From a virus (taxonomy: Duplodnaviria > Caudoviricetes), in the IMG/VR virus record IMGVR_UViG_3300044260_000039, positions 1-32,042 of that record: 32,042 bases of DNA; one strand, given 5' to 3'. Below, piece by piece: positions 1,913 through 19,676 of the stretch. Numbering within the stretch: position 1 is the stretch's first letter; each line of letters opens with the position of its first letter. Below the pieces are notes generated by a model, which saw only the letters and a program-made list of their open reading frames with translations, did no database searches and was not told the origin of the DNA. Position numbers and translations under genes: made by a program.

Positions 1913-2304
1913 AACTGAAAATTGACGGCAAGGAATACGACATTGAGGCAGCGATGGAACGGCCCACGCTGTTCCTGATCCGTGAAATGAAGATCCGCAC
2001 CGGCTACGGGATCAAGTCGCTCATGGACGCCGGAAAGCAGTTCAAGGGCAAGGCAACCGAGGAAATCCTCGACGATCCCGATCTGCTCGGCGCGTTTATC
2101 GCGATGATCTGGCTCGCCAGGCGCAGCGCGGGCGAACAACTCACGTTTGAACAGGCCGGCTCCTTTGATCTGGAATCGGCCGAGTTCGTCAACGACGCGC
2201 CCGAGCTCCCGGCCCCTGGCGATGATCTCCCAAAAGCTCCGGCGACGGATTCCGCACCGGCAGACGGCCGGCACGTGCAGCCCGTACCCGGATTGAGCAT
2301 GTAG
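1909..2304 (+). CDS. tail assembly chaperone (gpG, short form)
   Basis: Just before the tape measure gene; IWLARR..GE motif; slippery C CCA AAA at 2229-2235. Confidence 0.85.
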   Translation: MKLKIDGKEYDIEAAMERPTLFLIREMKIRTGYGIKSLMDAGKQFKGKATEEILDDPDLLGAFIAMIWLARRSAGEQLTFEQAGSFDLESAEFVNDAPELPAPGDDLPKAPATDSAPADGRHVQPVPGLSM

Positions 2305-2459
2305 ACGATATCGATATCTCGGTCTTTGAAAACATCGTTTTCATTTCCGAGCACTGGCCAGGAATCAACCCGGCCACGGTCTGGGGCATTACCTACGATT
2401 TCTGGCTGCTCTACCTCCACGCCGCCGAGCAGCGGCGCCAACAACTGAAAGAAGGCTAG
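1909..2459 (+). CDS. tail assembly chaperone (gpGT, -1 frameshift product)
   Basis: After CCCAAAA (2229-2235) the -1 frame is open to TAG 2457-2459 and encodes ...SEHWPGINPATVWGITYDFWLLYLHAAEQRRQQLKEG, ending 3 nt before the tape measure start. Confidence 0.85.
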
Positions 2460-2462
2460 GCC

Positions 2463-5306
2463 GTGGCTGCCTCGATGTTCTTTGACATTTTCGGACGCGA
2501 CAAGGGCGTCACGGCGATGTTCGACAAGGTCGCCGAGAAGGCGCACGGCCTCGGCCCGGTGTTCGAGGGCGCCGGGGCCCTGGTGGGCAAGCTCGCGCTG
2601 CCGCTCGCCGCGCTCGGCGTCGGCGTGGGGATGAAAAAATTCATCGATTCCTCGGTCGAATCGTTTGAAACCCTCGCCGGGTCCGTGTCCGGCCTGAAAC
2701 GGGTCATGGGCGGCACCACCGAATCAGTGTCGGGGATGCGCGGCGCGATGCAGCTCGCCGGCGTGAACGTCGACGACATTTCCGGGCTGATGACGAAATT
2801 CGCGAAAAACCTCGGCGGCGCCGACGCCTCGGCGGCAGCCTCGCAGAAAATGCTGCAGACGCTGGGGTTCAACTACCGCGACGCGCACGGCGCAATGCTC
2901 CCCATGACGGACATCCTGCCCAAGCTCGCAGACCGGTTTAAGTCCATGCCGGACGGCGTCGATAAAACGGCGCTCGCGATGAGTATTTTCGGCAAGCAGG
3001 GCGCCGCGATGCTCCCATTCTTGAATAAGGGCAGCGCGGGGATCGCCGATCTCGAGGCTCACGCTAAAAAAATGGGCCTCACCCTCGATGACGTCTCAAT
3101 TAAGATCATGGCCGCCGGCAAGGTATCCGCGCGGGATTTCTCTAGCAGCATCCAGGGCATGAAAGTCCAGCTAGGCCAGGATCTCGCGCCGGTCATCGAA
3201 TCAGTGGAGAACCTCTCGCGCGCCGCGCTCACGCCGCTGATCGCCGGCGCGACGAAACTCTTTGAAGCCGGCCGCGGCCCGGCAATGAAATTTGCCTCCG
3301 CGATCGAATCGACGTCCGAGCACCTGCACGAAACCCTCGGCAAGCTCGCCGAACCGGCCGTGAAACTCGCGAAGGACTTTCACGACGGATTCAGCCACGG
3401 CGTCGACGCGATCGGTTCCAACCAGACCGCGCTCGCGCACTGGGGCGCCGCGGCGTTCGGTATGTTCGCCGCGTCCAAGGAAACCGCTCACCAATTTTTC
3501 GAGGGCGTGAAGGCCGGTAACGCGTTCTCCGGCCCCTCGCTCGCCGGCACGTTCGGCGCGGCCGGAAATCAGGTACATCACGCTTTCACCGAGGCGGCCG
3601 GCGGCAGCCGGGCATTTTTCGCCGCGTTCAAGGCCGGCGGCGACGATATCACCTCGAGCGGATTCGCCGGGGTGCTCGAGGGGATGGGACTAAAGGCGCG
3701 GCACGGATTCGACGCCGCGCACGAGGGCGCCCGCGTGCTCTTTGACGCGATCCGCACCGGATCCAACACCGCTACCGGCGGCCTCGACGGCATGGCGGCC
3801 ACGGCCGGCAACTCGCTGCACAAGGCATTCGGCGACGCCCGCGCCGCTGCCGGGACGTTCTTCGACGGGCTGAAAACGGGGGCGAATGATTCCGGGCAGG
3901 GGGGGATCGTCGGGCTCGCCGGCTCGCTCGGCAACAGCCTGCATGGCCTGTTCGAGAAGATCGGGCCGATGCTCCCGCAGATCCTGCAGCTCGCGTCGTC
4001 ATTTTCTCCGCTCTCGCTGGTGTTCCACGCGCTCGAGCCGGTCCTGCCGCAGCTGGTGGGGATGCTCGGGCAGCTCGCGGCGACGCTCGCCGGCGCGCTC
4101 GGCCAGGCGCTCTCGACGATCATGCCGGCCCTGCAGGGCCTCGCCGCTGCCCTGGTCGGCGCGCTCGGCCAGGCGATCCAAACGATTCTGCCGACGCTAA
4201 TCTCGCTTCTGCCGGTCGTCGTGCAGGCATTTATGGGCCTGGTGCCGGTCGCAACGCAGATCATCGCCGCCGTGCTGCCGCTGGTCGCCCAGCTGCTCCC
4301 GCCACTGATCGGGCTCTTTACCAAACTCGTGCCGGTCGTCCTGCAGCTGGTCCAAACCGTGCTGCCGCCGATCGCGAAAATCGTCATGGTGATCATCGCC
4401 GCGATTGTTCCGCTGGTGCAGCTGATCGCCGCGCTGCTGATCCCGATCATCACCGCGCTAATGCCGGTGATCACGACGGTCTTTAACGCGATCGCGGGCA
4501 TCATCCTGGCGATCATGCCGATCATTCAAGGCGTGATTGAGGTCGTCCTCGGGCTGATCTCCGGGAACTGGTCGATGGTCTGGCAGGGCATCGTCGATAT
4601 CTTTACCGGGATCTGGCAGACGATCGTCGCGGTCGTCTCCGGCGTGCTCTCGGTGCTCGGTTCGGTGATCGGCGCCGGGCTGAATTTGATAGGCGGCCTG
4701 GTGGGGGGGATCCTCGGCGGGATCGGCTCATTTTTTGCCGACACATGGAACAACATTATCGGCGGTGTGTCCGGATTTATCGGGCAACTGCTCGGTTTTT
4801 TCTCCGGCCTGCCGGGGCAGATTATGGGGTTCCTCGCCGGCGCCGGCACGTGGCTCTATGACGCCGGAAAAAACATAATCGACGGGCTGATCAACGGCGT
4901 GAAGTCGATGATCGGCGCGATCGGTAACGCGATCCTCTCACTCGTGCCGGGCCCGATCGTCGGCGTGTTCAAAGACGCGCTAGGGATTCATTCGCCGTCG
5001 CTGGTGTTCCACGGATTCGGCGAAAACATCGGGCAGGGCCTGATCAACGGCGTCGGGGCGATGGTTCCGAAGATCGACGCGCGAATGTCGTCCCTGGTCA
5101 AGCCGCTCGACGTGCCGGGGATCGTCGCCGGCGCCGCCGGCGGCAGCGGATCCGCCGGCGCCGGGGCGCGGGTCAACACGGCCGGCCCTGCCCTGCACAT
5201 TGAAAACATTAACGTCAACGAGGCACAGCAGGGGGGGTGGCAGCACGTGGGAAACAGCATTCTTAACGCCGTCCAGGTCAAGGCGCCGCAGGTATTCGCG
5301 CTGTGA
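2463..5306 (+). CDS. tape measure protein
   Basis: 947 aa, Ala/Gly-rich; ALAMSIFGKQGAAMLPFL and LGIHSPSLVF..FGENIGQGLING motifs; amphipathic Trp/Phe repeats. Confidence 0.95.
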   Translation: MAASMFFDIFGRDKGVTAMFDKVAEKAHGLGPVFEGAGALVGKLALPLAALGVGVGMKKFIDSSVESFETLAGSVSGLKRVMGGTTESVSGMRGAMQLAGVNVDDISGLMTKFAKNLGGADASAAASQKMLQTLGFNYRDAHGAMLPMTDILPKLADRFKSMPDGVDKTALAMSIFGKQGAAMLPFLNKGSAGIADLEAHAKKMGLTLDDVSIKIMAAGKVSARDFSSSIQGMKVQLGQDLAPVIESVENLSRAALTPLIAGATKLFEAGRGPAMKFASAIESTSEHLHETLGKLAEPAVKLAKDFHDGFSHGVDAIGSNQTALAHWGAAAFGMFAASKETAHQFFEGVKAGNAFSGPSLAGTFGAAGNQVHHAFTEAAGGSRAFFAAFKAGGDDITSSGFAGVLEGMGLKARHGFDAAHEGARVLFDAIRTGSNTATGGLDGMAATAGNSLHKAFGDARAAAGTFFDGLKTGANDSGQGGIVGLAGSLGNSLHGLFEKIGPMLPQILQLASSFSPLSLVFHALEPVLPQLVGMLGQLAATLAGALGQALSTIMPALQGLAAALVGALGQAIQTILPTLISLLPVVVQAFMGLVPVATQIIAAVLPLVAQLLPPLIGLFTKLVPVVLQLVQTVLPPIAKIVMVIIAAIVPLVQLIAALLIPIITALMPVITTVFNAIAGIILAIMPIIQGVIEVVLGLISGNWSMVWQGIVDIFTGIWQTIVAVVSGVLSVLGSVIGAGLNLIGGLVGGILGGIGSFFADTWNNIIGGVSGFIGQLLGFFSGLPGQIMGFLAGAGTWLYDAGKNIIDGLINGVKSMIGAIGNAILSLVPGPIVGVFKDALGIHSPSLVFHGFGENIGQGLINGVGAMVPKIDARMSSLVKPLDVPGIVAGAAGGSGSAGAGARVNTAGPALHIENINVNEAQQGGWQHVGNSILNAVQVKAPQVFAL

Positions 5307-6823
5307 GCGCGGGTAACCTGATCACCGGGCCGGGGCAGCTGCAGTGGCGCAATCTGCTGCTCGGCCCCGGCACGGATTACGATCTGAAAGACCTCTCCGG
5401 CTGGGAAGATATGCCGCCGGTCGACGTCGGGTCGAAAACGAAGCCGCGCGGGCACGGCGCGGATCCGGGCCGGATGCTCGCCCAACCGCACACGTTCACG
5501 TCGGTATTCGATGTCAACCCGCAGGCCTCCGGCGGCACCGGCCCGGCGCGGGCGTTCATCCTGGCGCAGACCGGGCTGCCGGATGACACCCGGCAGGAGC
5601 CGATCGCGGTCTGTCTCGATCAGGGCGTGACCATGCTCCGGTTCGGGCAGCTCACGGCCCGGAAGATCCCGTTCGTCGTGAATTACGAAAACGTGATTGA
5701 GAATTGCGCGCTGCAGTGGGAATGCGCGGATCCGCGGCTGTATTCCTCGGCGCAGACGGTCATCTCGGCGGCGCTGCCGGTCGCCGCGCCGGCCTCGCAG
5801 GCCGTCCGAACGAACGCCACGCTTAACCCGCTGGCAATCACGCCGGGAACGGGATTCGGCGCCTATGCCGCCGGCACCGGCGAAGCCGGCACGACAACAT
5901 GGATAACGGGCGCCGGAGACGGGCCGATGCCGGAAATCACCACCTATGGGCGCTGGTCGGTCACTACGGCGAAAACCTCCGGCTCGACGGGCTGGAAATC
6001 GGAAGCCGCGGCGAACCGGGCGCCGGCCTCCGGCGTCGCCGGCGACGTATGGACGGGGTCGATCTGGCTCCGCTATACCGGCACCGGGACCGCGCATTTC
6101 GTCCCGCGGATATCGTTCTACACCTCCGGCGGCACGCAGCTTACACCGGTCGACGCGACACCGGTCGATCTGGTGTCCGGGCAGTGGACACGAATCACCG
6201 CATCGGCCGCGGCGCCCGGCACGTTCGCCTCGGTCGCGCTCTGGCCATACCAGACAAGCGGGTACGTGCTGCCGGCCGGCTCCACGCTCGACGCTACCGG
6301 CGAGCAAGTGGAGTTCGCAGCCCAGGCCGGCACGTTCGTCTCGGGAGCGACGCCGAACACGCCGAACCTGGTCCACGCATGGACGGGCGCGGCGAACGCG
6401 TCGGCGTCGACCGAAACGCTATCCTCGCCCGGCGTGTTCCCGCTGACCTACCCGGCACCTTACGCGACGATGGTCGCCGGCGGCGGCCCGCAGACAGCGG
6501 TAAACAACGGCAACGCGACGTCACCGCCGGTCTACACGATCGCCGGCGGCGCGTCGGGCGTGACCTCACCGGCGATCTCGATCACGGACGGCACCGGCAC
6601 CCGGCAAACGGTCTTTAACCTCACGCTCGCGGCCGGCGACGCGCTGGTGATCGACGTCCTGAACAGGACGGTCCTGCTCAACGGGGCGAACCGGTACGGA
6701 TTCAGTACCGGCACGCCGATTGAATCGCTCACCCTCGCGCCGGGATCCTCGACGCTTTCACTCAGTGGCACCGGCGACGGTTCGGTGCTGCTCACGGCCG
6801 CGTTCTACGACGCATACATCTAA
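5303..6823 (+). CDS. distal tail (Dit-like) minor tail protein with inserted beta-rich, carbohydrate-binding-like segment
   Basis: First gene after the tape measure; GWEDMP and WECADPRLYS in the N-terminal part, NNGNATSPP...LAPGS in the C-terminal part; ~200-aa Thr/Gly/Trp-rich insert between them. Confidence 0.75.
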   Translation: MSAGNLITGPGQLQWRNLLLGPGTDYDLKDLSGWEDMPPVDVGSKTKPRGHGADPGRMLAQPHTFTSVFDVNPQASGGTGPARAFILAQTGLPDDTRQEPIAVCLDQGVTMLRFGQLTARKIPFVVNYENVIENCALQWECADPRLYSSAQTVISAALPVAAPASQAVRTNATLNPLAITPGTGFGAYAAGTGEAGTTTWITGAGDGPMPEITTYGRWSVTTAKTSGSTGWKSEAAANRAPASGVAGDVWTGSIWLRYTGTGTAHFVPRISFYTSGGTQLTPVDATPVDLVSGQWTRITASAAAPGTFASVALWPYQTSGYVLPAGSTLDATGEQVEFAAQAGTFVSGATPNTPNLVHAWTGAANASASTETLSSPGVFPLTYPAPYATMVAGGGPQTAVNNGNATSPPVYTIAGGASGVTSPAISITDGTGTRQTVFNLTLAAGDALVIDVLNRTVLLNGANRYGFSTGTPIESLTLAPGSSTLSLSGTGDGSVLLTAAFYDAYI

Positions 6824-6832
6824 GGGGAACCA

Positions 6833-7750
6833 ATGACGATCATCGTCTCCGGCCGGCTGGTCGAAGCCGAGGCCGAGGCCAGGAATCAGACCGCTGTGAT
6901 CCTGCCATCGGACGGCACACAGCTCGGCGTGATCCAGGGCGTGCAGGGCGGGCTCACGCTCACGAAAACGTCGGGCATGGGCTGGCAGCTCGATATCGGC
7001 CGGTGTGTGATCGCCGCGGCGACGCCGGCCAACGGCCCGGTGGTCGCTACCGTCACCGTCGCCGAAACGGGCGTATTCGCGCCCGGCGACGCGACACGTA
7101 ACCGGATCGATATCGTCACGCTGCTGATCGACGAGACGGCCACCGTCGCGAACGGCAACCCGCGCGTCAAGACCAACGTGATCCAGGGCGCCTATCCGGT
7201 GTCCGGTTCGCCCGTCGCGCCCGCCGTGCCGGCCGGGCAAATCCCGCTGTGGTCCGAACAAGTCAACGCCGGGATCTCGGCCGGCTCCGGCGGCTGGGAT
7301 ACCTCCACGCTTAAGGATCTCCGCGGCGTGGCGCTCGGCAAAAGGGGCCGGATAGAGCTCACCGCATCCAACAGCATCCCCAACGCGAACACTCCGCTCT
7401 GGGGCGTCGGGCCGCTCACCGCAGACGCCGCGGCGACGAAAACCACGGACGGCGGCCTGGTCGCGGCCGGCACGGATACCGTCACGATCCGCGACGCCGG
7501 CGAATACTCGATCAATTGGTACGGCTCGCTCGCTAACCCGGTCACCGGCCGGTCGTTCCTCTCACTGGACAACACCGCCGGAACGAACAATTTCGGCCGC
7601 TCGAGTTTCACCACCGGCGAGAACACGACGAACGTCTCGTGTCCGTCCTACGTCGCCGCGGCCGGCGAAGTGATCAAGTTCAACGTCTACCAGACCTCCG
7701 GCGCATCGAACACGCTGACGTCGCGGATCCGTATCGCCAGGGTTCAATAA
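6833..7750 (+). CDS. minor tail protein
   Basis: NRIDIV...VIQG.P.SGSPVAPAVPAG.IPL motif common in actinophage minor tail proteins; beta-rich C-terminus. Confidence 0.75.
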   Translation: MTIIVSGRLVEAEAEARNQTAVILPSDGTQLGVIQGVQGGLTLTKTSGMGWQLDIGRCVIAAATPANGPVVATVTVAETGVFAPGDATRNRIDIVTLLIDETATVANGNPRVKTNVIQGAYPVSGSPVAPAVPAGQIPLWSEQVNAGISAGSGGWDTSTLKDLRGVALGKRGRIELTASNSIPNANTPLWGVGPLTADAAATKTTDGGLVAAGTDTVTIRDAGEYSINWYGSLANPVTGRSFLSLDNTAGTNNFGRSSFTTGENTTNVSCPSYVAAAGEVIKFNVYQTSGASNTLTSRIRIARVQ

Positions 7751-9716: not shown

Positions 9717-10363
9717 GCAACGAAGAAAACGCCGCGCAGCTCGAGCACGCCGAGACGGCCGCGGCCCGGTCCAGGCGATCCGATAAGCGCTGGAAAATCG
9801 GGCTCGCGCTGCTCGCGCTGTTGCTGGTGCTGCTCGGCGCGATCGTTGCGGCCCTGGCCATTGAGAACGGGCAGCTCGCCCAATCCAACGCGGCGGCCGC
9901 GACGTCCCAGGCGCAGCAGAAGCAGGATCTCGCGCAGCAGATCGCGGCCGCGTGCGGCGCCGGGCAGATCGTGAAAAACGGCGCCGGCGTCAACTTATGC
10001 GAACGCGCCGCGGCCGTCGCGGCCGAACCGATCCCGTCGCCGGGCCCTGGTCCTGCCGGCCCGGCCGGCCATGACGGCAAGGACGGGCAGCCCGGCGCCA
10101 CCGGGCCGGCCGGCCAGACGGGGCCCGCCGGTGCCGCCGGCAGCGCGGGCGCGGCCGGCCGTGACGGGGCAGATTCCACAGTTCCGGGCCCTGCCGGGCC
10201 TACCGGGGCGCCGGGCCGGGACGGGCAGCCGGGGCCGGCCGGGCCTGCCGGCAAGGACGGCGGCGAGCCGGCCAGGTTCACGTTTACCGACGTCACCGGC
10301 CGCACCTACACATGCACACCCAACCCGCCGGGATCCTCGAGCTACACGTGCCAGGCGGCCTAA
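9713..10363 (+). CDS. membrane-anchored collagen-like (Gly-X-Y) protein
   Basis: TM helix [21 protein letters not shown]; long [16 protein letters not shown] tract; paired Cys on both sides. Confidence 0.8.
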
Positions 10364-10389
10364 CCACACACAACGAAAGGCGGGCCGGT

Positions 10390-11169
10390 ATGGCTACGCA
10401 GCTGATCACACCTAACGCGGCCGTGCCGTGCCGGCCGGGCTACTGCCTCGAGTACGTCCGCGAGGCGTTCGGCCTGCCGATCCGGTACGGATCCGCGGCC
10501 GAGGCATGGGAAAAATCGGCCTCACAGCACCGGGACCGGAACATTCCGGCCGGTATGTGGGCGCCGGTGTATTTCTCGATCGACGTCGAACCGAACGGCC
10601 ATATCGCGCTGCAGGCGCCGGATGGGTCGATCTATTCATCCTCGGATCTGACAAGCACGCCGCACCATCACCCGGATATCGAGAATCTGATCGCCTATTA
10701 CGCCCGGTGGGGCAAGATGCAGCTGACCTACCTCGGGTGGACTGAGGACGTCGCCGGCTATCCCGTTATTTCCCTCGAGGGCGCCGGGCCCTCGGGGCTC
10801 TCACCGCAAAGCATCACCCAACTACAGGAGGCCGGAATTATGGCACAGCTTGATAATGATGATCGCGTGTTTGTTCAGACCGTGATTCATGCGGACACTG
10901 ACCGGGCAATTCTGGACAACCGGGCCCAGGTCGGCGCCGCGGCGAACGCGATTCTTAAGGCGATCGCGGCCTCGGCGTGGGATATCAAGACGTTCGAGCA
11001 GGCGGTCGACAACGGTAACGGCGATCGCGAGATCGACGATCAGCGGCAGAAGCTCACCGCGGCAGTCGACGAAATCAAGGCCGCTCTGCACTCCGAGATT
11101 CACGGCGCACCGCTGCCGGCACCCGTCGACGTCGCCACCACCATTACCACTACCGCAGGGGGCAAATAA
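10390..11169 (+). CDS. endolysin with N-terminal CHAP/NlpC-P60-like Cys-His peptidase domain
   Basis: GYCLEYVREAFG, SAAEAW, NGHIAL and YLGWTED motifs; GAAAGG RBS before ATG 10390; followed by holin. Confidence 0.8.
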   Translation: MATQLITPNAAVPCRPGYCLEYVREAFGLPIRYGSAAEAWEKSASQHRDRNIPAGMWAPVYFSIDVEPNGHIALQAPDGSIYSSSDLTSTPHHHPDIENLIAYYARWGKMQLTYLGWTEDVAGYPVISLEGAGPSGLSPQSITQLQEAGIMAQLDNDDRVFVQTVIHADTDRAILDNRAQVGAAANAILKAIAASAWDIKTFEQAVDNGNGDREIDDQRQKLTAAVDEIKAALHSEIHGAPLPAPVDVATTITTTAGGK

Positions 11170-11842: not shown

Positions 11843-11953
11843 TCGAGATTACCGATGACCGGATACACGCCGGTTATTTGTGGCTTGCGGCGGTGTGAAA
11901 CGCTGCAGGCTGGCGGGCCCGGATCCTTATGGATCCGGGCCCGCTGTTTTTTT
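11843..11953 (+). ncRNA. putative ~110-nt small RNA (two hairpins plus terminator)
   Basis: Hairpins 11855-11877 and 11884-11909 with G-U pairs on + and complementary loops; bounded by promoter and T7 terminator. Confidence 0.45.
11911..11953 (+). terminator. intrinsic terminator
   Basis: GCGGGCCCGGATCC-TTAT-GGATCCGGGCCCGC 14-bp stem followed by TG and T7. Confidence 0.9.
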
Positions 11954-11954
11954 G

Positions 11955-12609
11955 CCCTGGTGAGACTCCCGCGCGCTGGTGAGACTTGAGCAATCTCGCT
12001 ACCGCATTTCGTTCTCTGGTTGTCCTCGAGCTGCCGCCGGCTGCTCTTGTCTCACCCTGCCGCCGGGCTGCCTGGCTCGGCTGCTCTAGCAGCCGTTTTC
12101 TTTTGTCTCGGCCCTTGTTTTTAGCTGACCACGGAGGGAGATGGGAGGGATGAGGGCAGGAGTCTGCCTGATCTGAAATCAGGAACAGACTCACTACTTG
12201 TAACCACGTCGGTCGACGGTCGGTTATCGGTTGGGCAGCACTGGGGCTGCTGATCTGCACGGGCTTATTACAAGTACCCGCAACGGCGGCATATGTCTTG
12301 ATCTCTGGCGGCCCGGCTAGGCATGGCTGTAACTGCTGGCGTCTCTTCGATTCCGGGGCTCGCGCTCTCCGGTGAAACAGTCTGGATCAAGACTCGACAA
12401 TAGAACCGGCTCTAACCCGGATCGGCTGCTCTCGCGGCCTGGTCTTTGGTGTTTATCCTGCCGTAGCGGGAAACGTGGCTCTGGACACTTACCACGGTCC
12501 TAGCATCCGTTGGAGCGGTTTGCTAGGCTTTCTGTATTCGCAAAGAATGATTTTCAAGATATCCCCCTGGTTGGAGCCGGGGGGATATCGCCGTTTTACG
12601 GGCGTGTTC
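11955..12609 (-). ncRNA. putative long structured non-coding RNA / RNA-based origin region (3' end uncertain)
   Basis: No credible ORF; dedicated leftward promoter at 12616-12645; many hairpins and 9-bp long-range inverted repeats. Confidence 0.5.
12078..12108 (+). terminator. intrinsic terminator-like hairpin inside the non-coding locus
   Basis: CGGCTGC-TCTA-GCAGCCG followed by TTTTCTTTTGT. Confidence 0.6.
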
Positions 12610-12615
12610 AAAAAG

Positions 12616-12645
12616 AATCTACACGCGAAACGCGTACATACGCAA
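12616..12645 (-). promoter_or_regulatory. leftward SigA-type promoter with 17-bp operator
   Basis: On - strand TTGCGT-N18-TAGATT, hexamers identical to promoter 13651-13680; operator TACACG-CGAAA-CGCGTA at 12620-12636. Confidence 0.75.
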
Positions 12646-12646
12646 A

Positions 12647-12681
12647 CAGCGGGCCGGCGTGTTGTCCACGCCGGCCCGCTG
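12647..12681 (-). terminator. terminator after the DUF4236-like gene
   Basis: Perfect 15-bp stem CAGCGGGCCGGCGTG/CACGCCGGCCCGCTG, followed by TTTG on -. Confidence 0.7.
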
Positions 12682-12697
12682 CCGTTGTTCCGGGGCC

Positions 12698-12904
12698 CTA
12701 CTCAAACAGATTCGGCCGCTTACGCCGGCCGCTGCTGCCGCTGCCGAGGCGCCAGGACAGCCCAGGAGCGAGCCGAACCGTCACCCGGCCGCGACTGTTC
12801 ACGGTCACCGGGCCCACACGCTTAGAAACGCTCACACCGCGCTTAGACACGTTCAACGCCGCGCCGTTGCCAAGCTGCACACGCTTACGAAAGATCCAGC
12901 CCAT
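12698..12904 (-). CDS. DUF4236-like small basic protein (68 aa)
   Basis: MGWIFRKRVQLGNGAALNVSKRGVSVS...GLSWR fits the DUF4236 pattern; AGGGAG RBS before ATG 12904. Confidence 0.75.
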   Translation of the reverse strand: MGWIFRKRVQLGNGAALNVSKRGVSVSKRVGPVTVNSRGRVTVRLAPGLSWRLGSGSSGRRKRPNLFE

Positions 12905-13102: not shown

Positions 13103-13606
13103 TCACTGCTCGGCCAGGCACGCGGGGCAGGTTGCCTGCCGGCGCATCGTCGTCATGCTGCCGCGGGCGCCGCATACGCCGGCGTAGGGCTGATTCCCGG
13201 CGTTCCCGACGTTCCCGGCAAGGTGAGTAATGCCGGCGGCCTCGCGCTCGGCCTCGCGCTCGGCTGAGAGCTTAGCGATTTCGGCGCTCTCGGCCTCGAG
13301 TACGGCCAGCACGGCGGCCGGATCCTCGGCGGCCGGATCCTCGGCTGCCGGCTCACCAGCGGCGGGCGCCTCGGCCTCGGCGGGCTCGTATTCCCACGCC
13401 GCGCCGTCCGCGGTCGCTACTCGGCGGCCTACGAGCTTGCAGTCGGCGGCCGCGATCCGGCGGTAGGCGCCGAATACTTTGCCGTTTTTCCAGCCGCTTA
13501 CGCCGATCGTTTCGCTGCCGCGGTCCGCGTCGTGCTGGAATCCGACGATATAGGTTTTGCCGGTCTTGTATTCGACTACATCATTGCGGCTGAAAGAGTG
13601 GGTCAT
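13103..13606 (-). CDS. hypothetical protein (beta-rich N-terminus, acidic linker, C-terminal H/C..CxxC zinc-binding-like motif)
   Basis: GAGG RBS before ATG 13606; own promoter at 13651-13680; THL...VCG...TCPAC. Confidence 0.7.
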   Translation of the reverse strand: MTHSFSRNDVVEYKTGKTYIVGFQHDADRGSETIGVSGWKNGKVFGAYRRIAAADCKLVGRRVATADGAAWEYEPAEAEAPAAGEPAAEDPAAEDPAAVLAVLEAESAEIAKLSAEREAEREAAGITHLAGNVGNAGNQPYAGVCGARGSMTTMRRQATCPACLAEQ

Positions 13607-13650: not shown

Positions 13651-13690
13651 AATCTACGCGCCACGCGCGTATAAACGCAAGCAGCGAGTA
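13651..13690 (-). promoter_or_regulatory. leftward promoter with tandem operator sites
   Basis: TTGCGT-N18-TAGATT; perfect-armed TACGCG-CCACG-CGCGTA (13655-13671) and degenerate AACGCA-AGCAG-CGAGTA (13674-13690). Confidence 0.75.
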
Positions 13691-13752: not shown

Positions 13753-14205
13753 CTAGGCGATCTGCTGCCGCGGGGATCCGGGCCAGAGCGAATGTTCGTA
13801 GCGGATCGGCGCCGGGTCCAGGTACTGCAGCTGGGGCGGCCCTGACGGCGCCGGCGGCAGCGTGCCACTGCCTGGCTGCTGCCGCTGCTGCTGCTGCTGC
13901 TGATCGGCGGTCTCTATGCGGGAGATAACGCCGGTGATCGTTGACTCGCCGCTCGCGTCCTCGAGGCCGAGCAGGTAAGTAATCCGGATCCCGGTCGCGG
14001 ATTCGAGCCGTTCGAGTTCGTCAAGCTCCCACGCGGCCGAGCCGGTGTAGCGGCGCGAAAACGAGCCTTGGGTCATGCCGATCGCCGCGGCTACTTCGGT
14101 TCCCTTCAATTGGAGTTCACCCATGCGGCCACGTAGGCGGCGGGCGACTGCTTGGGACAGGGTTTCAAGTTCGCCGTTATGGCCGGCTGCCGGTGGAGTC
14201 GTCAT
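13753..14205 (-). CDS. immunity repressor (XRE-family HTH, cI-like), 150 aa
   Basis: HTH LKGTEVAAAIGMTQGSFSRRYTG..WELDELERL; divergent from the cro-like gene; ATG 14205 lies 6 nt after a -10 element. Confidence 0.8.
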   Translation of the reverse strand: MTTPPAAGHNGELETLSQAVARRLRGRMGELQLKGTEVAAAIGMTQGSFSRRYTGSAAWELDELERLESATGIRITYLLGLEDASGESTITGVISRIETADQQQQQQRQQPGSGTLPPAPSGPPQLQYLDPAPIRYEHSLWPGSPRQQIA

Positions 14206-14211
14206 TTCCCG

Positions 14212-14240
14212 AGCGTATACACGCATTCCGCGTAAAACAA
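14212..14240 (-). promoter_or_regulatory. repressor promoter (leaderless) whose spacer is the operator
   Basis: TTGTTT-[TACGCGGAATGCGTGTA]-TACGCT-CGGGAA-ATG on -. Confidence 0.7.
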
Positions 14241-14436: not shown

Positions 14437-14673
14437 ATGAGAAAAACACCCGCTGCAGTAGCTCAGCGCGTAAAGGAAGAAGCAGCGCGGCAGCGGATCC
14501 CGCAGGCCGCGCTCGCCGAGAGGATCGGCGTCACGCAACAGAACGTCTCCCGCCGGCTCGCCGGCACGGCGCCGATCACCGTAGTAGAGGCCGAGCTGTT
14601 CGCCGACGCGCTCGGCGTCTCGATCGCCTGGCTGTTCGGCGAAACCGACACACCCGCGCCGGCGCCGGTCTAA
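14437..14673 (+). CDS. Cro-like XRE HTH regulator
   Basis: IPQAALAERIGVTQQNVSRRLAG..ITVVEAELFADALGVSIAWL; first rightward early gene. Confidence 0.85.
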   Translation: MRKTPAAVAQRVKEEAARQRIPQAALAERIGVTQQNVSRRLAGTAPITVVEAELFADALGVSIAWLFGETDTPAPAPV

Positions 14674-18455: not shown

Positions 18456-19676
18456 ATGCCGTGGCTCAGGATTGGCGATACCGCAGCGAATCACCCGATC
18501 GCGCTCGCGGTACTCGAGGATCCGGCCGCCGATGATCGGCTGCTCAATGAGGTTTTCGGGTTCGTCGCGCGGTGCGCTCTGCAATCCACAGCGCACCTAA
18601 CCGACTACCTGGTGAGCATGGGAACAGCGATTCAGATCGGCGGGCACTCGCGGGTCTGGACACTGCTCGACGCAGCAGTTGACGCCGGCTACTTTTCGCC
18701 GGCCGAGATGATCGTCGACGGGATCGCACGCAAGGCTTACAAGCTGCTCGACGATCCCGATTTCATCCACATGAGGACCAAGGAAGAAATCGAGTGGGAA
18801 CGGCAACGGAAAACCGATAACTCTAATCCGGCGCTGATCGTGCCGGTTAGGCTCCGCGACGGCGACGCGTGCCGTTATTGCGGTCTGGTCGTCGATTTCC
18901 GGCCGGGGCAGCGTAAGGGCCGTATCGCCGGAACTTACGATCACCGGCAGCCAGGGCATGAGGCAACGATCGAGACGTACGTCGTTTGCTGCAGGGCGTG
19001 CAACGCGTCCCGCGGCGACGACACAAACGCCGACGCCTCGCTGCCGCTGCTGCCGGCGCCGTCGCGGCCGTACTACAGCCCGCACACGATCGAATGGATC
19101 CGAACTAATGATTGGGCCAAGCGAAACGGCATCAAGCCGCCTCGCAAGGGCAAAGCGATCGCGCCGGGCGAACCGGCGCGTAAGAGTGGAGCAACGCCGG
19201 CCAACGGAAGCAGTACCGGGCCGGCGCCGGGGATCAACGGAAGCAGTGACCGGATCCCAACGGGCGAACCTCTGGCAAGTGGAGCAACGCCGGCCAACGG
19301 AAGCAGTACCGGGCCGGCGTCGGGGATCAACGGAAGCAGTGACCGGATCCCAACGGGCGAAACAAACCGCGCAGAAAATCACGAAAACGGGCCGGAAAAT
19401 CAAAACCACCTCGAAAAACACGTAAAAACGAACACAGAAAAAACGCCGTCCGAACCGGAAAAACCGCCTCTGAACAGGCAAAACACCGGATCTGGCAGAA
19501 ATCCGCAGATTCCGCAGAACGGCAGACTGCAAAATCTGGATTCGCCGGGTCGGGTCGGGTCGGGTCGGGTCGGGTCGGTACTGGCAGGGCCCGCGATCTC
19601 CACAGCCACCCACACACAACACACAACAGATCAGCCCGGCCGCTCACGGCCACGCACACGCAGGGGAAACCAATGA
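18456..19676 (+). CDS. putative replication initiator with central HNH-like zinc-finger domain
   Basis: N-terminal MPWLRIGD..HP as in actinophage initiator-like proteins; RDGDACRYCG..YDH..CRACNASR; internal iteron-like repeats; GAAGGAG RBS. Confidence 0.65.
   Translation: MPWLRIGDTAANHPIALAVLEDPAADDRLLNEVFGFVARCALQSTAHLTDYLVSMGTAIQIGGHSRVWTLLDAAVDAGYFSPAEMIVDGIARKAYKLLDDPDFIHMRTKEEIEWERQRKTDNSNPALIVPVRLRDGDACRYCGLVVDFRPGQRKGRIAGTYDHRQPGHEATIETYVVCCRACNASRGDDTNADASLPLLPAPSRPYYSPHTIEWIRTNDWAKRNGIKPPRKGKAIAPGEPARKSGATPANGSSTGPAPGINGSSDRIPTGEPLASGATPANGSSTGPASGINGSSDRIPTGETNRAENHENGPENQNHLEKHVKTNTEKTPSEPEKPPLNRQNTGSGRNPQIPQNGRLQNLDSPGRVGSGRVGSVLAGPAISTATHTQHTTDQPGRSRPRTRRGNQ
19185..19361 (+). 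repeat. two 84-bp direct repeats (93-bp period) containing 4x CAACGGAAGCAGT; candidate lytic origin iterons
   Basis: 13-mers at 19202, 19235, 19295 and 19328, followed by an A-tract-rich segment. Confidence 0.8.
19546..19575 (+). repeat. (CGGGT)6 microsatellite
   Basis: Read directly from the sequence. Confidence 0.95.

Follow-up and report, generated by a model that had tools for sequence, protein, structure and literature searches.

In ColE1, hybrid formation involves an upstream RNA segment that repeats sequence near the origin, and the RNA-DNA hybrid is processed into a primer by RNase H and DNA polymerase I. Two actinobacterial systems are the closest to the locus described here. Cluster A mycobacteriophages carry ORF-free regions of ~600 bp that are transcribed opposite to parA; according to the available part of the report, these origins are needed for stable lysogeny but dispensable for lytic growth, they suffice as RNA origins for plasmid replication, and parABS is not required for this replication (Wetzel et al., 2020; PMC7157519). 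The second system is pKPAL3, a cryptic plasmid of Kocuria palustris whose replication needs no ORF. Its Region I (2123-2626) and Region II (2721-2854) are essential, its copy number is about 20, and ORF-free derivatives replicate in several Kocuria species; the accessible portion of the text makes no mention of ColE1 and proposes no RNA (Toda & Itoh, 2017; PMC5711781). ARRPOF, GEBRO and PAGEV are structured motifs, 220-350 nt long, that have been linked to the replication of plasmids; in the excerpt available, ARRPOF is reported to lie in a gene-free region that suffices for replication (Weinberg et al., 2017; PMC5737381).

RNA-primed origins are already known, and two members or likely relatives of the family presented below have been tested as DNA regions. 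In the open-access literature searched, neither the RNA family nor a link between pKPAL3 and phage origins is described; the structure, the antisense regulator, the repeat, the connection between the systems and the phage-plasmid nature predicted for FO phages are new with respect to it. We consider it probable that the conserved, structured two-RNA element of this locus is an RNA-primed, Rep-independent origin that maintains an integrase-less phage as a plasmid prophage. This reading draws on the conservation of the element, its covarying fold, the lack of a conserved ORF and the homology to the essential ORF-free region of pKPAL3.

Location and extent of the element

The window, that is, the whole stretch of 32,042 nucleotides that was analysed (IMG/VR record IMGVR_UViG_3300044260_000039), is a complete circular siphophage genome with a 127-nt terminal repeat. 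Among named phages, those of Arthrobacter are the closest to it. A PHROGs scan of 42 of its ORFs gave matches for head, tail and holin genes, for a repressor with a cro-like gene facing it, and for a methylase and a protein of HNH type, and a Pfam comparison covering 15 of the ORFs provided the DUF4236 assignment. Integrase, ParA, ParB and Rep had no match among the 42 ORFs, and no tRNA or tmRNA was found in the window. The element lies between the holin terminator and the leftward DUF4236 gene, with the following features around it.

11911-11953, plus strand: strong terminator 3' of the holin gene
12078-12105, plus strand: intrinsic terminator pointing into the element, a predicted insulator against read-through
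12120-12609, minus strand: predicted structured primer-precursor RNA of ~490 nt, the conserved element (blastn, family profile, fold z -3.63)
12616-12645, minus strand: predicted promoter of the long RNA (-35 TTGCGT, 18 nt, -10 TAGATT; start near 12609)
12648-12682, minus strand: hairpin 3' of the DUF4236 gene, from its sequence a probable upstream terminator
13756-14226, minus strand: repressor-like HTH gene (PHROGs transcriptional repressor, E 8e-11)
14437-14673: cro-like gene, divergent from the repressor-like HTH gene

An earlier note on this DNA had proposed that a dedicated promoter, TTGCGT-N18-TAGATT at 12645-12616 of the minus strand, fires into a large ORF-less RNA region at 11955-12645. 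The promoter is present in the sequence as described and is kept in JanetJ, Aoka, EvenBluerMoon and locus L009; a generic promoter scan did not detect it. The same -10-to-start geometry is found in the small circle L167. The hexamer pattern, which the note described as shared with the promoter of gene 13103-13606, recurs in the window only once, at 13680 (twin 13651-13680). The two leftward promoter stretches, 13651-13686 and 12616-12651, are 81% identical over 36 nt. The shared sequence contains a palindrome that lies between the -35 and the -10, and this could be an operator through which one regulator acts on both the origin RNA and gene 13103-13606.

The region proposed as an RNA is real but shorter than claimed, running from about 12609 to 12120 on the minus strand. 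With blastn, three FO phages align to it over ~530 nt at 79-83% identity, and FF phages have a short match (11 records of 50,697); the flanks of the element are unrelated among the FO phages. Conservation ends near 12120, and 11955-12075 is common only to L009 among the loci compared. The counterpart of the terminator hairpin at 12078-12105 is present in both FO and FF phages. As for coding potential, the 11874-12386 frame contains stops in all four closest relatives and is crossed by many 1-nt indels, in agreement with the claim that no credible gene follows the promoter, and a coding role for the element was rejected on account of these stops. The dense base-pairing noted earlier was also recovered: 11950-12610 folds better than its shuffles (z -4.65 on the minus strand, -4.07 on the plus strand), and so does 12110-12609 (z -3.63).

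Several other observations concern the ends of the element and its surroundings. In most members, and likewise in the cluster A origins, a CACGCC motif (12600-12609 in the window; also in L248-L256) is found at the 5' end of the element, often as one arm of an inverted repeat; it appears to resemble the WhiA binding motif. On the other side, the block 11950-12075 is a second strongly folding stretch with a repeated GTCTCACC motif and its inverse, common only to L009; downstream of the origin, it could serve as a site of resolution or of lagging-strand priming. The DUF4236 gene contains three spaced copies of a CTTA-centred 19-mer (12815-12896). One sequencing run guessed to be RNA contained two short diverged contigs over the core, which are not evidence of expression. 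The available part of PMC10865867 contains nothing on the element.

A covarying core with a pseudoknot

Homologues were collected and aligned (alignment A2: 53 core sequences; 65 of 112 kept after near-duplicate removal), which gave the following core features.

12406-12420, minus strand: Pa hairpin with a conserved GUYAGAG loop; compensatory change in 5/5 pairs
12295-12393, minus strand: core domain closed by Pb (12393-12385 with 12303-12295) and holding Pc and Pd
12363-12360, minus strand: loop of Pd, GNRA in 61/68 distinct rows
12282-12343, minus strand: pseudoknot, GACG 12343-12340 with CGUU 12285-12282
12259-12281, minus strand: Pe hairpin with a conserved UAAU loop motif; compensatory change in 7/7 pairs

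The named structure had 83% of its cells paired in A2, and 32 of its 34 pairs showed two-sided changes. None of 500 shuffles reached this level of covariation, slid controls gave 32-38%, and a mutual-information scan run without a guide structure ranked helix pairs at the top and returned the same helices. Covariation among homologues, which the earlier note had suggested as a check, is strong in the core, with 32/34 pairs in 53 sequences. The four pairings named in that note are all in the sequence but only two of them are conserved. The GTCTTGATC/GATCAAGAC pairing, here Pb, covaries strongly (93.8% paired, 9/9 pairs covarying), and the hairpin at 12160-12192 is kept among homologues with varying arms; the TACTTGTAA/TTACAAGTA and TCCGGG/CCCGGA pairings, present in the window, are not kept in homologues. 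Likewise, the tetraloops cUACGg and cGAGAg do not hold as conserved features, because the loops vary among homologues though their hairpins persist. A pseudoknot had been suggested and one exists, but through a different pairing, that of 12343-12340 with 12285-12282. It is 99.5% paired, with compensatory change in 3/4 pairs, an invariance that is in part an effect of recruitment, since the search pattern behind many of the rows included one of the two strands of the pseudoknot; the compensatory variants come from BLAST-recruited rows (the window, JanetJ, Aoka, L009, L047 and L044). The pairing scores of Pc and Pf are lower (57-59%), partly because of misalignment.

The third base of the Pd loop tracks the first Pc pair, being A with G-C in 29/34 and G with A-U in 14/27, a correlation that fits the tetraloop-receptor rule and is confounded by kinship. 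Counts of G-U against A-C in the core (91 vs 157) picked no strand. The minus strand is favoured because of the promoter, the GNRA loops, the G-U pairs in the pseudoknot and Pe of the window, and the expressed strand of the cluster A origins. As for the G tract of the plus strand, a G-quadruplex was rejected because Aoka and FF phages do not retain four GGG runs.

Antisense signals over the 5' end

The 5' domain contains signals on the plus strand as well.

12558-12589, both strands: hairpin 1, loop CUCCAA in sense and UUGGAG in antisense, with compensatory changes
12536-12600, plus strand: predicted antisense control RNA of ~65 nt, deduced from a conserved -10 and a terminator
12524-12529, plus strand: antisense -10 element TAGGCT; TANNNT in the aligned columns of 58/63 members
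12499-12527, minus strand: hairpin 2, with a second CUCCAA loop, overlapping the antisense promoter

The T and A at 12524-12525 rank with the best-conserved bases of the 5' domain, and hairpin 1 follows some 30-45 nt beyond the plus-strand TANNNT. In the window, hairpin 1 is fully paired only on the plus strand, where it is followed by a T run (12594-12597), and a T run comes after it on this strand in most members. Hairpin 1 and the T run are predicted to form the terminator of an antisense RNA, and the prediction of a ~65-nt transcript comes from the conserved plus-strand -10 followed by this hairpin. A tally of hairpin-1 pairs (46 A-C vs 21 G-U in 59 rows) is only indicative, because the finder chose the wrong hairpin in some rows. 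The proposal that both strands may be functional is supported as a working analogy by the conserved antisense promoter and terminator signals, transcription itself being only predicted. The circles L127 and L129, which come from the same genome (G125), have different loops (CGCCAA and TTGGCG), as compatible replicons should.

A direct repeat at the 3' end

Downstream of the core, the element ends in three consecutive segments.

12203-12233, minus strand: run of CGAC repeats with the first direct-repeat copy (CGTGGT 12208-12203) at its end
12160-12192, minus strand: last hairpin, of varying length in the family
12118-12160, minus strand: segment with a C-rich tract, the second direct-repeat copy (CGTGGT 12133-12128) and an A5 run, predicted to be where the hybrid forms and the primer ends

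The direct repeat occurs after the CGAC tract and again after the last hairpin and C-rich tract. Its sequence is CGTGGT, twice, in the window and GGCTGGTC, twice, in pKPAL3. The two copies covary: the mean shared run was 6.14 nt against 4.31 +/- 0.19 in permutations (0/5000), in a test on the 29 distinct classes represented by the 51 located members. The intervening hairpin had at least 7 of 8 bp in 32/55 rows located, with 21 different arm pairs. These data suggest that, as in hybrid formation in ColE1, the upstream copy in the RNA pairs with the template where the downstream copy lies; the repeat might also be accounted for by alternative folds of the RNA.

Homology to the essential region of pKPAL3

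The plasmid pKPAL3, of 4,443 bp, was found with one family member as the query. A profile of 9 sequences from phages or viral contigs, built before the plasmid entered the analysis, matches it at 2501->2131 with an E value of 8e-33, inside Region I (2123-2626); a blastn search with the window as query gives no match to it. Region I is homologous to the window locus over the whole element. The hairpins, the pseudoknot, the CGAC and C-rich tracts and the direct repeat all recur in it, and the covarying structure, including the pseudoknot, is shared between the two. The primers used for the pKPAL3 vector map to about 2040-3031, which is the whole element plus upstream DNA. The predicted start of the RNA comes directly after Region II, whose requirement may for this reason reflect the promoter and hairpin 1. 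The plasmid differs from the phage in being a 4.4-kb replicon with an XerD-like stability gene, and it has no replicon type in PLSDB. By homology, the ORF-free autonomous replication shown for pKPAL3 may carry over to the element of the window.

Comparison with cluster A origins

The cluster A origins are ORF-free central regions of about 600 bp with leftward transcription, and the position, predicted promoter and gene content of the window locus, in a phage with no integrase or Rep match, fit this description. On the expressed strand of Alma, RedRock and Gladiator, the Pa loop, Pb, a GAAGG-ACAG-CC strand with its CUGU partner and the AGUAAU hairpin follow one another in the same order as here; the generic form of the shared core strand is GAAGG-NNNN-CC with a complementary partner, ACAG/CUGU in cluster A. 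Phlei also has CGAC and C-rich tracts. The cluster A origins differ in lacking the Pd GNRA hairpin, in having an extra hairpin after Pa and in being linked to parABS, whereas none of the 42 ORFs of the window matches ParA or ParB. The origin of Ebony does not fit the shared motif order: in L252 (740-1380) only the first ~90 nt are common with the Alma origin and the core is different, and this origin possibly represents a second type of RNA origin.

A motif descriptor was written after seeing Alma, RedRock and Gladiator. It matches 40 of 65 family members (missing 25) as well as Alma and Gladiator, and RedRock once one limit is relaxed, and it was found at 0 places in 1.27 Mb of other loci and in 0/9000 random sequences. 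Unchanged, it matched 3/5 further cluster A origins not seen when it was written, which are not independent because they are relatives of Alma. By other methods the match to the family is weak and its scores are not significant. The top three matches of model R1 in cluster A origins comprise the Pa hairpin only, 15 nt, at E values of 0.05-0.2 (0.05-0.7 over all matches), and profile-to-sequence scores are weak, the best being E 0.004 (Phlei). No alignment of the family with the cluster A cores was obtained with MAFFT, so the correspondence rests on the descriptor and on a reading of the motifs. Homology of the family with the cluster A origins is likely from these sequence features, not proven.

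Comparison with ColE1 and other large RNAs

The earlier note had offered a ColE1 RNA II-like primer precursor as one interpretation. It stands as a working analogy, owing to the homologue in the essential ORF-free region of pKPAL3 and to the conserved antisense promoter and terminator, but not as membership of the ColE1 family. ColE1 (NC_001371) gave no match by nhmmer, model or descriptor, and RNA I (RF00106) had no match in the window while the positive control was found on ColE1. On the proposed model the two systems are alike in being Rep-free and in having a primer precursor of similar length with an antisense RNA over its 5' end. Antisense promoter and terminator signals do lie over the 5' end of the predicted primer RNA, and no Rep was found in the window or in the scanned ORFs of most carrier circles (the exceptions being L213 and possibly L140). 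The 5' loops of ColE1 RNA II, CUACCAA (NC_001371), are close to the CUCCAA loops of the window. In contrast, the antisense RNA predicted here is ~65 nt long with one main hairpin, as opposed to ~108 nt and three hairpins in ColE1, the 3' tract is C-rich here and G-rich in ColE1, and there is no Rop here.

The other interpretation offered was a large phage RNA comparable to ROOL or GOLLD. The size range and the presence in phages are alike, and a trans-acting role of this kind, or in immunity or defence, and not in replication, would agree with the size of the element, its complex fold with pseudoknot and GNRA loops, its dedicated promoter and its place in a repressor-side cassette. However, the Rfam check gave no match for the window or for the element in 20 loci, no tRNA accompanies the element in the window and its context is that of plasmid origins. 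It corresponds to an essential region of pKPAL3 and is nearly the sole conserved content of circles of 1.5-2.2 kb, which makes a trans-acting RNA highly improbable and leaves the ROOL/GOLLD proposal unsupported. ARRPOF, GEBRO and PAGEV belong to phyla different from those of the carriers of the element, and they too had no Rfam match to the window or the 20 loci.

Carriers of the RNA family

The RNA family is carried by Arthrobacter FO and FF phages, Micrococcaceae plasmids and circles of 1.5-2.2 kb without a recognisable replication gene. At least 17 places in 15 genomes were found among 401 genomes of the family of genome G001 (best 30 loci per search, plus the profile), and 12 of the 17 Micrococcaceae contigs with the element are of 12.5 kb or less, 5 of them being closed circles. 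A pattern scan of metagenomes yielded 106 loci, 56 matching the profile at E 0.01 or better, a figure that includes duplicates and four loci with the recruiting motif alone; L187 and L157, which have only this motif, were dropped before the antisense -10, hairpin-1, repeat and circle counts were made. Other searches were less productive. Blastn of the window against plasmids gave no match and that of one mini-circle against a plasmid collection only an unrelated 49-nt match; the Pa-loop pattern hit 0 viral contigs; a pattern scan of genome contigs gave 30 loci, 1 of them real; model R1 matched only the centre genome among 151 genomes of the order; and a class-wide pattern scan hit 33/401 genomes, about the level of the reversed control.

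Seventeen metagenomic closed circles of 1.5-2.2 kb carry the element (L144, L146, L156, L162, L167, L168, L171, L172, L174, L179, L183, L192, L194, L200, L202, L206 and L212). In each of the 4 circles profiled, the element is the sole block common to 14-16 of the other 16, and the ORFs scanned from six circles had no Pfam match. Some of these circles encode one hydrophobic protein of ~125 aa, and a long stretch of strong purine skew occurs in L167. The ORFs scanned from 6 mini-circles and from L127, L129, L132 and L134 yielded no Rep family. In 96 of the 123 ORFs listed, which were compared with Pfam, Rep appeared only as Viral_Rep on L213, together with a weak HTH_36 match on L140, whose protein may be an initiator; other matches on carriers were to resolvases and relaxases.

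The circovirus-type Rep of L213 has similar proteins on L125, L158 and L175, and the element is antiparallel to rep in 4/4 of these contigs. This arrangement keeps alive a lagging-strand-origin reading, in which the element is a priming site that needs another initiator, either as a rolling-circle single-strand origin or as a helper of lytic replication, the mini-circles being satellites of a Rep acting in trans. The antiparallel orientation is the one expected for RNA priming of a displaced strand, the HNH-type protein of the window (18456-19676) could act in lytic replication, and FO phages are described as lytic. Against this, ORF-free pKPAL3 derivatives replicate in several Kocuria species, the mini-circles share nothing detectable with the Rep plasmids outside the element, a single-strand origin needs neither a conserved double-strand promoter nor an antisense promoter-terminator pair, and cluster A origins are dispensable for lytic growth. 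A cognate Rep with its double-strand origin is absent from the window, pKPAL3 and the scanned mini-circles, and Rep is present on L213. Dependence on another initiator is on balance unlikely.

Further carriers illustrate the range of contexts. The small replicons L125 and L213 also encode FtsK. The 9.8-kb circle L127 (G125:C14) combines the element with terminase, portal and capsid genes and has no tail, integrase or Rep match; it may be a capsid-forming satellite living as a plasmid. A 9.9-kb contig, L133 (G312:C19), has two similar copies of the element, at 856-1482 and 6684-7312, and is either a cointegrate or an assembly artefact. Copies also occur among host genes in L137, L138 and L141. 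That of L137 is 5'-truncated and adjoins an IS1380 transposase, and that of L138 (G268:C4, about 10213-10765) is altered and lies on a 515-kb contig, with malate synthase on one side and an ABC transporter operon on the other; another contig of this genome, 1.7 kb in length, carries the element as well.

Lifestyle of the FO and FF phages

FO phages are probably lytic according to published descriptions (PMC10586098, in its available part; PMC11582879). Aoka forms clear plaques and is reported as lytic in the accessible text (PMC10586098), JanetJ forms slightly cloudy plaques with lysogeny called unlikely (PMC11582879), and PrairieDogTown is lytic according to the title of its paper (PMC13560649). 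The basis given, as far as the available texts go, is that neither a repressor nor an integrase was found (PMC10586098; PMC13560649; PMC11582879). In contrast to these descriptions, the leftward HTH protein of the window scores as a repressor. Maja, an FO phage with two integrases, has no model match to the element, which occupies the central genome position where Maja has its integrases. In FF phages the element stands beside one or two tyrosine recombinases and a tRNA. The FF 'integrase' adjoining it (L004 3493-4368 and equivalents) is a short Xer-like tyrosine recombinase of 291 aa with 26% identity to ORF4 of pKPAL3, and such recombinases could be multimer resolvases like pKPAL3 ORF4 or true integrases. 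The HNH-type gene of the window (18456-19676, 406 aa) contains a long direct repeat at 19073-19300 encoding a repeated GATPANGSSTGPA peptide; this repeat is a possible set of lytic origin iterons.

If the published lytic descriptions are taken at face value, the element could be a plasmid-derived origin carried as a passenger or a decaying remnant by a lytic phage with no use for it in lysogeny, and the truncated or altered copies among chromosomal genes (L137, L138) and the lack of partition genes in the window would agree with this. Decay is hard to reconcile with the state of the locus: in the window the promoter, the antisense -10, all helices, the pseudoknot (in its own compensatory variant) and both repeats are intact, identity among FO phages is 79-83% despite unrelated flanks, and the element sits at the central position of Maja's integrases. 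A passenger is accordingly judged very unlikely. The same lytic descriptions count against a plasmid prophage, as does the absence from the window of a partition system, which cluster A phages have; further points against it are the recombinases beside the element in FF phages, the copies among host genes, the circovirus-type Rep on four carriers and the weak cluster A profile scores.

A proposed model of RNA-primed initiation

For the preferred reading, a Rep-independent origin, the following sequence of events is proposed. Host RNA polymerase would transcribe about 490 nt leftward from ~12609, and the transcript would fold into the pseudoknotted core. The upstream repeat copy would pair with the template at the downstream copy while the intervening hairpin loops out, and this pairing would nucleate a lasting RNA-DNA hybrid over the C-rich tract; among the data, it is only the co-varying direct repeat that points to such a persistent hybrid. 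Processing of the hybrid to a primer by RNase H and DNA polymerase I is suggested by the ColE1 analogy only. The ~65-nt antisense RNA (12536 to ~12600) would bind hairpin 1 and in this way set copy number and incompatibility.

Implications for actinobacterial phages and plasmids

The replication of pKPAL3 without ORFs and the RNA-dependent origins of mycobacteriophages have both been published, unconnected and with the mechanism left open. A broader proposition, for and against which we see the case as evenly poised, is that a single unrecognised family of pseudoknotted primer RNAs with an antisense RNA constitutes an actinobacterial counterpart of ColE1, uniting cluster A origins, pKPAL3, FO and FF phages, the 9.8-kb capsid circle and the gene-less plasmids of 1.5-2.2 kb, and that the 'lytic' FO phages are phage-plasmids without integrase, Rep or partition. 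To these systems the element adds a structure backed by covariation, a predicted antisense regulator and a predicted hybrid-nucleating repeat. If the origin reading holds, phages now annotated as lytic would have a temperate lifestyle that has gone unnoticed, and the element would account for gene-less mini-plasmids that are overlooked by Rep-based typing. Vectors for Arthrobacter and Kocuria could also be built on such origins of ~600 bp, whose compatibility groups are potentially separable.
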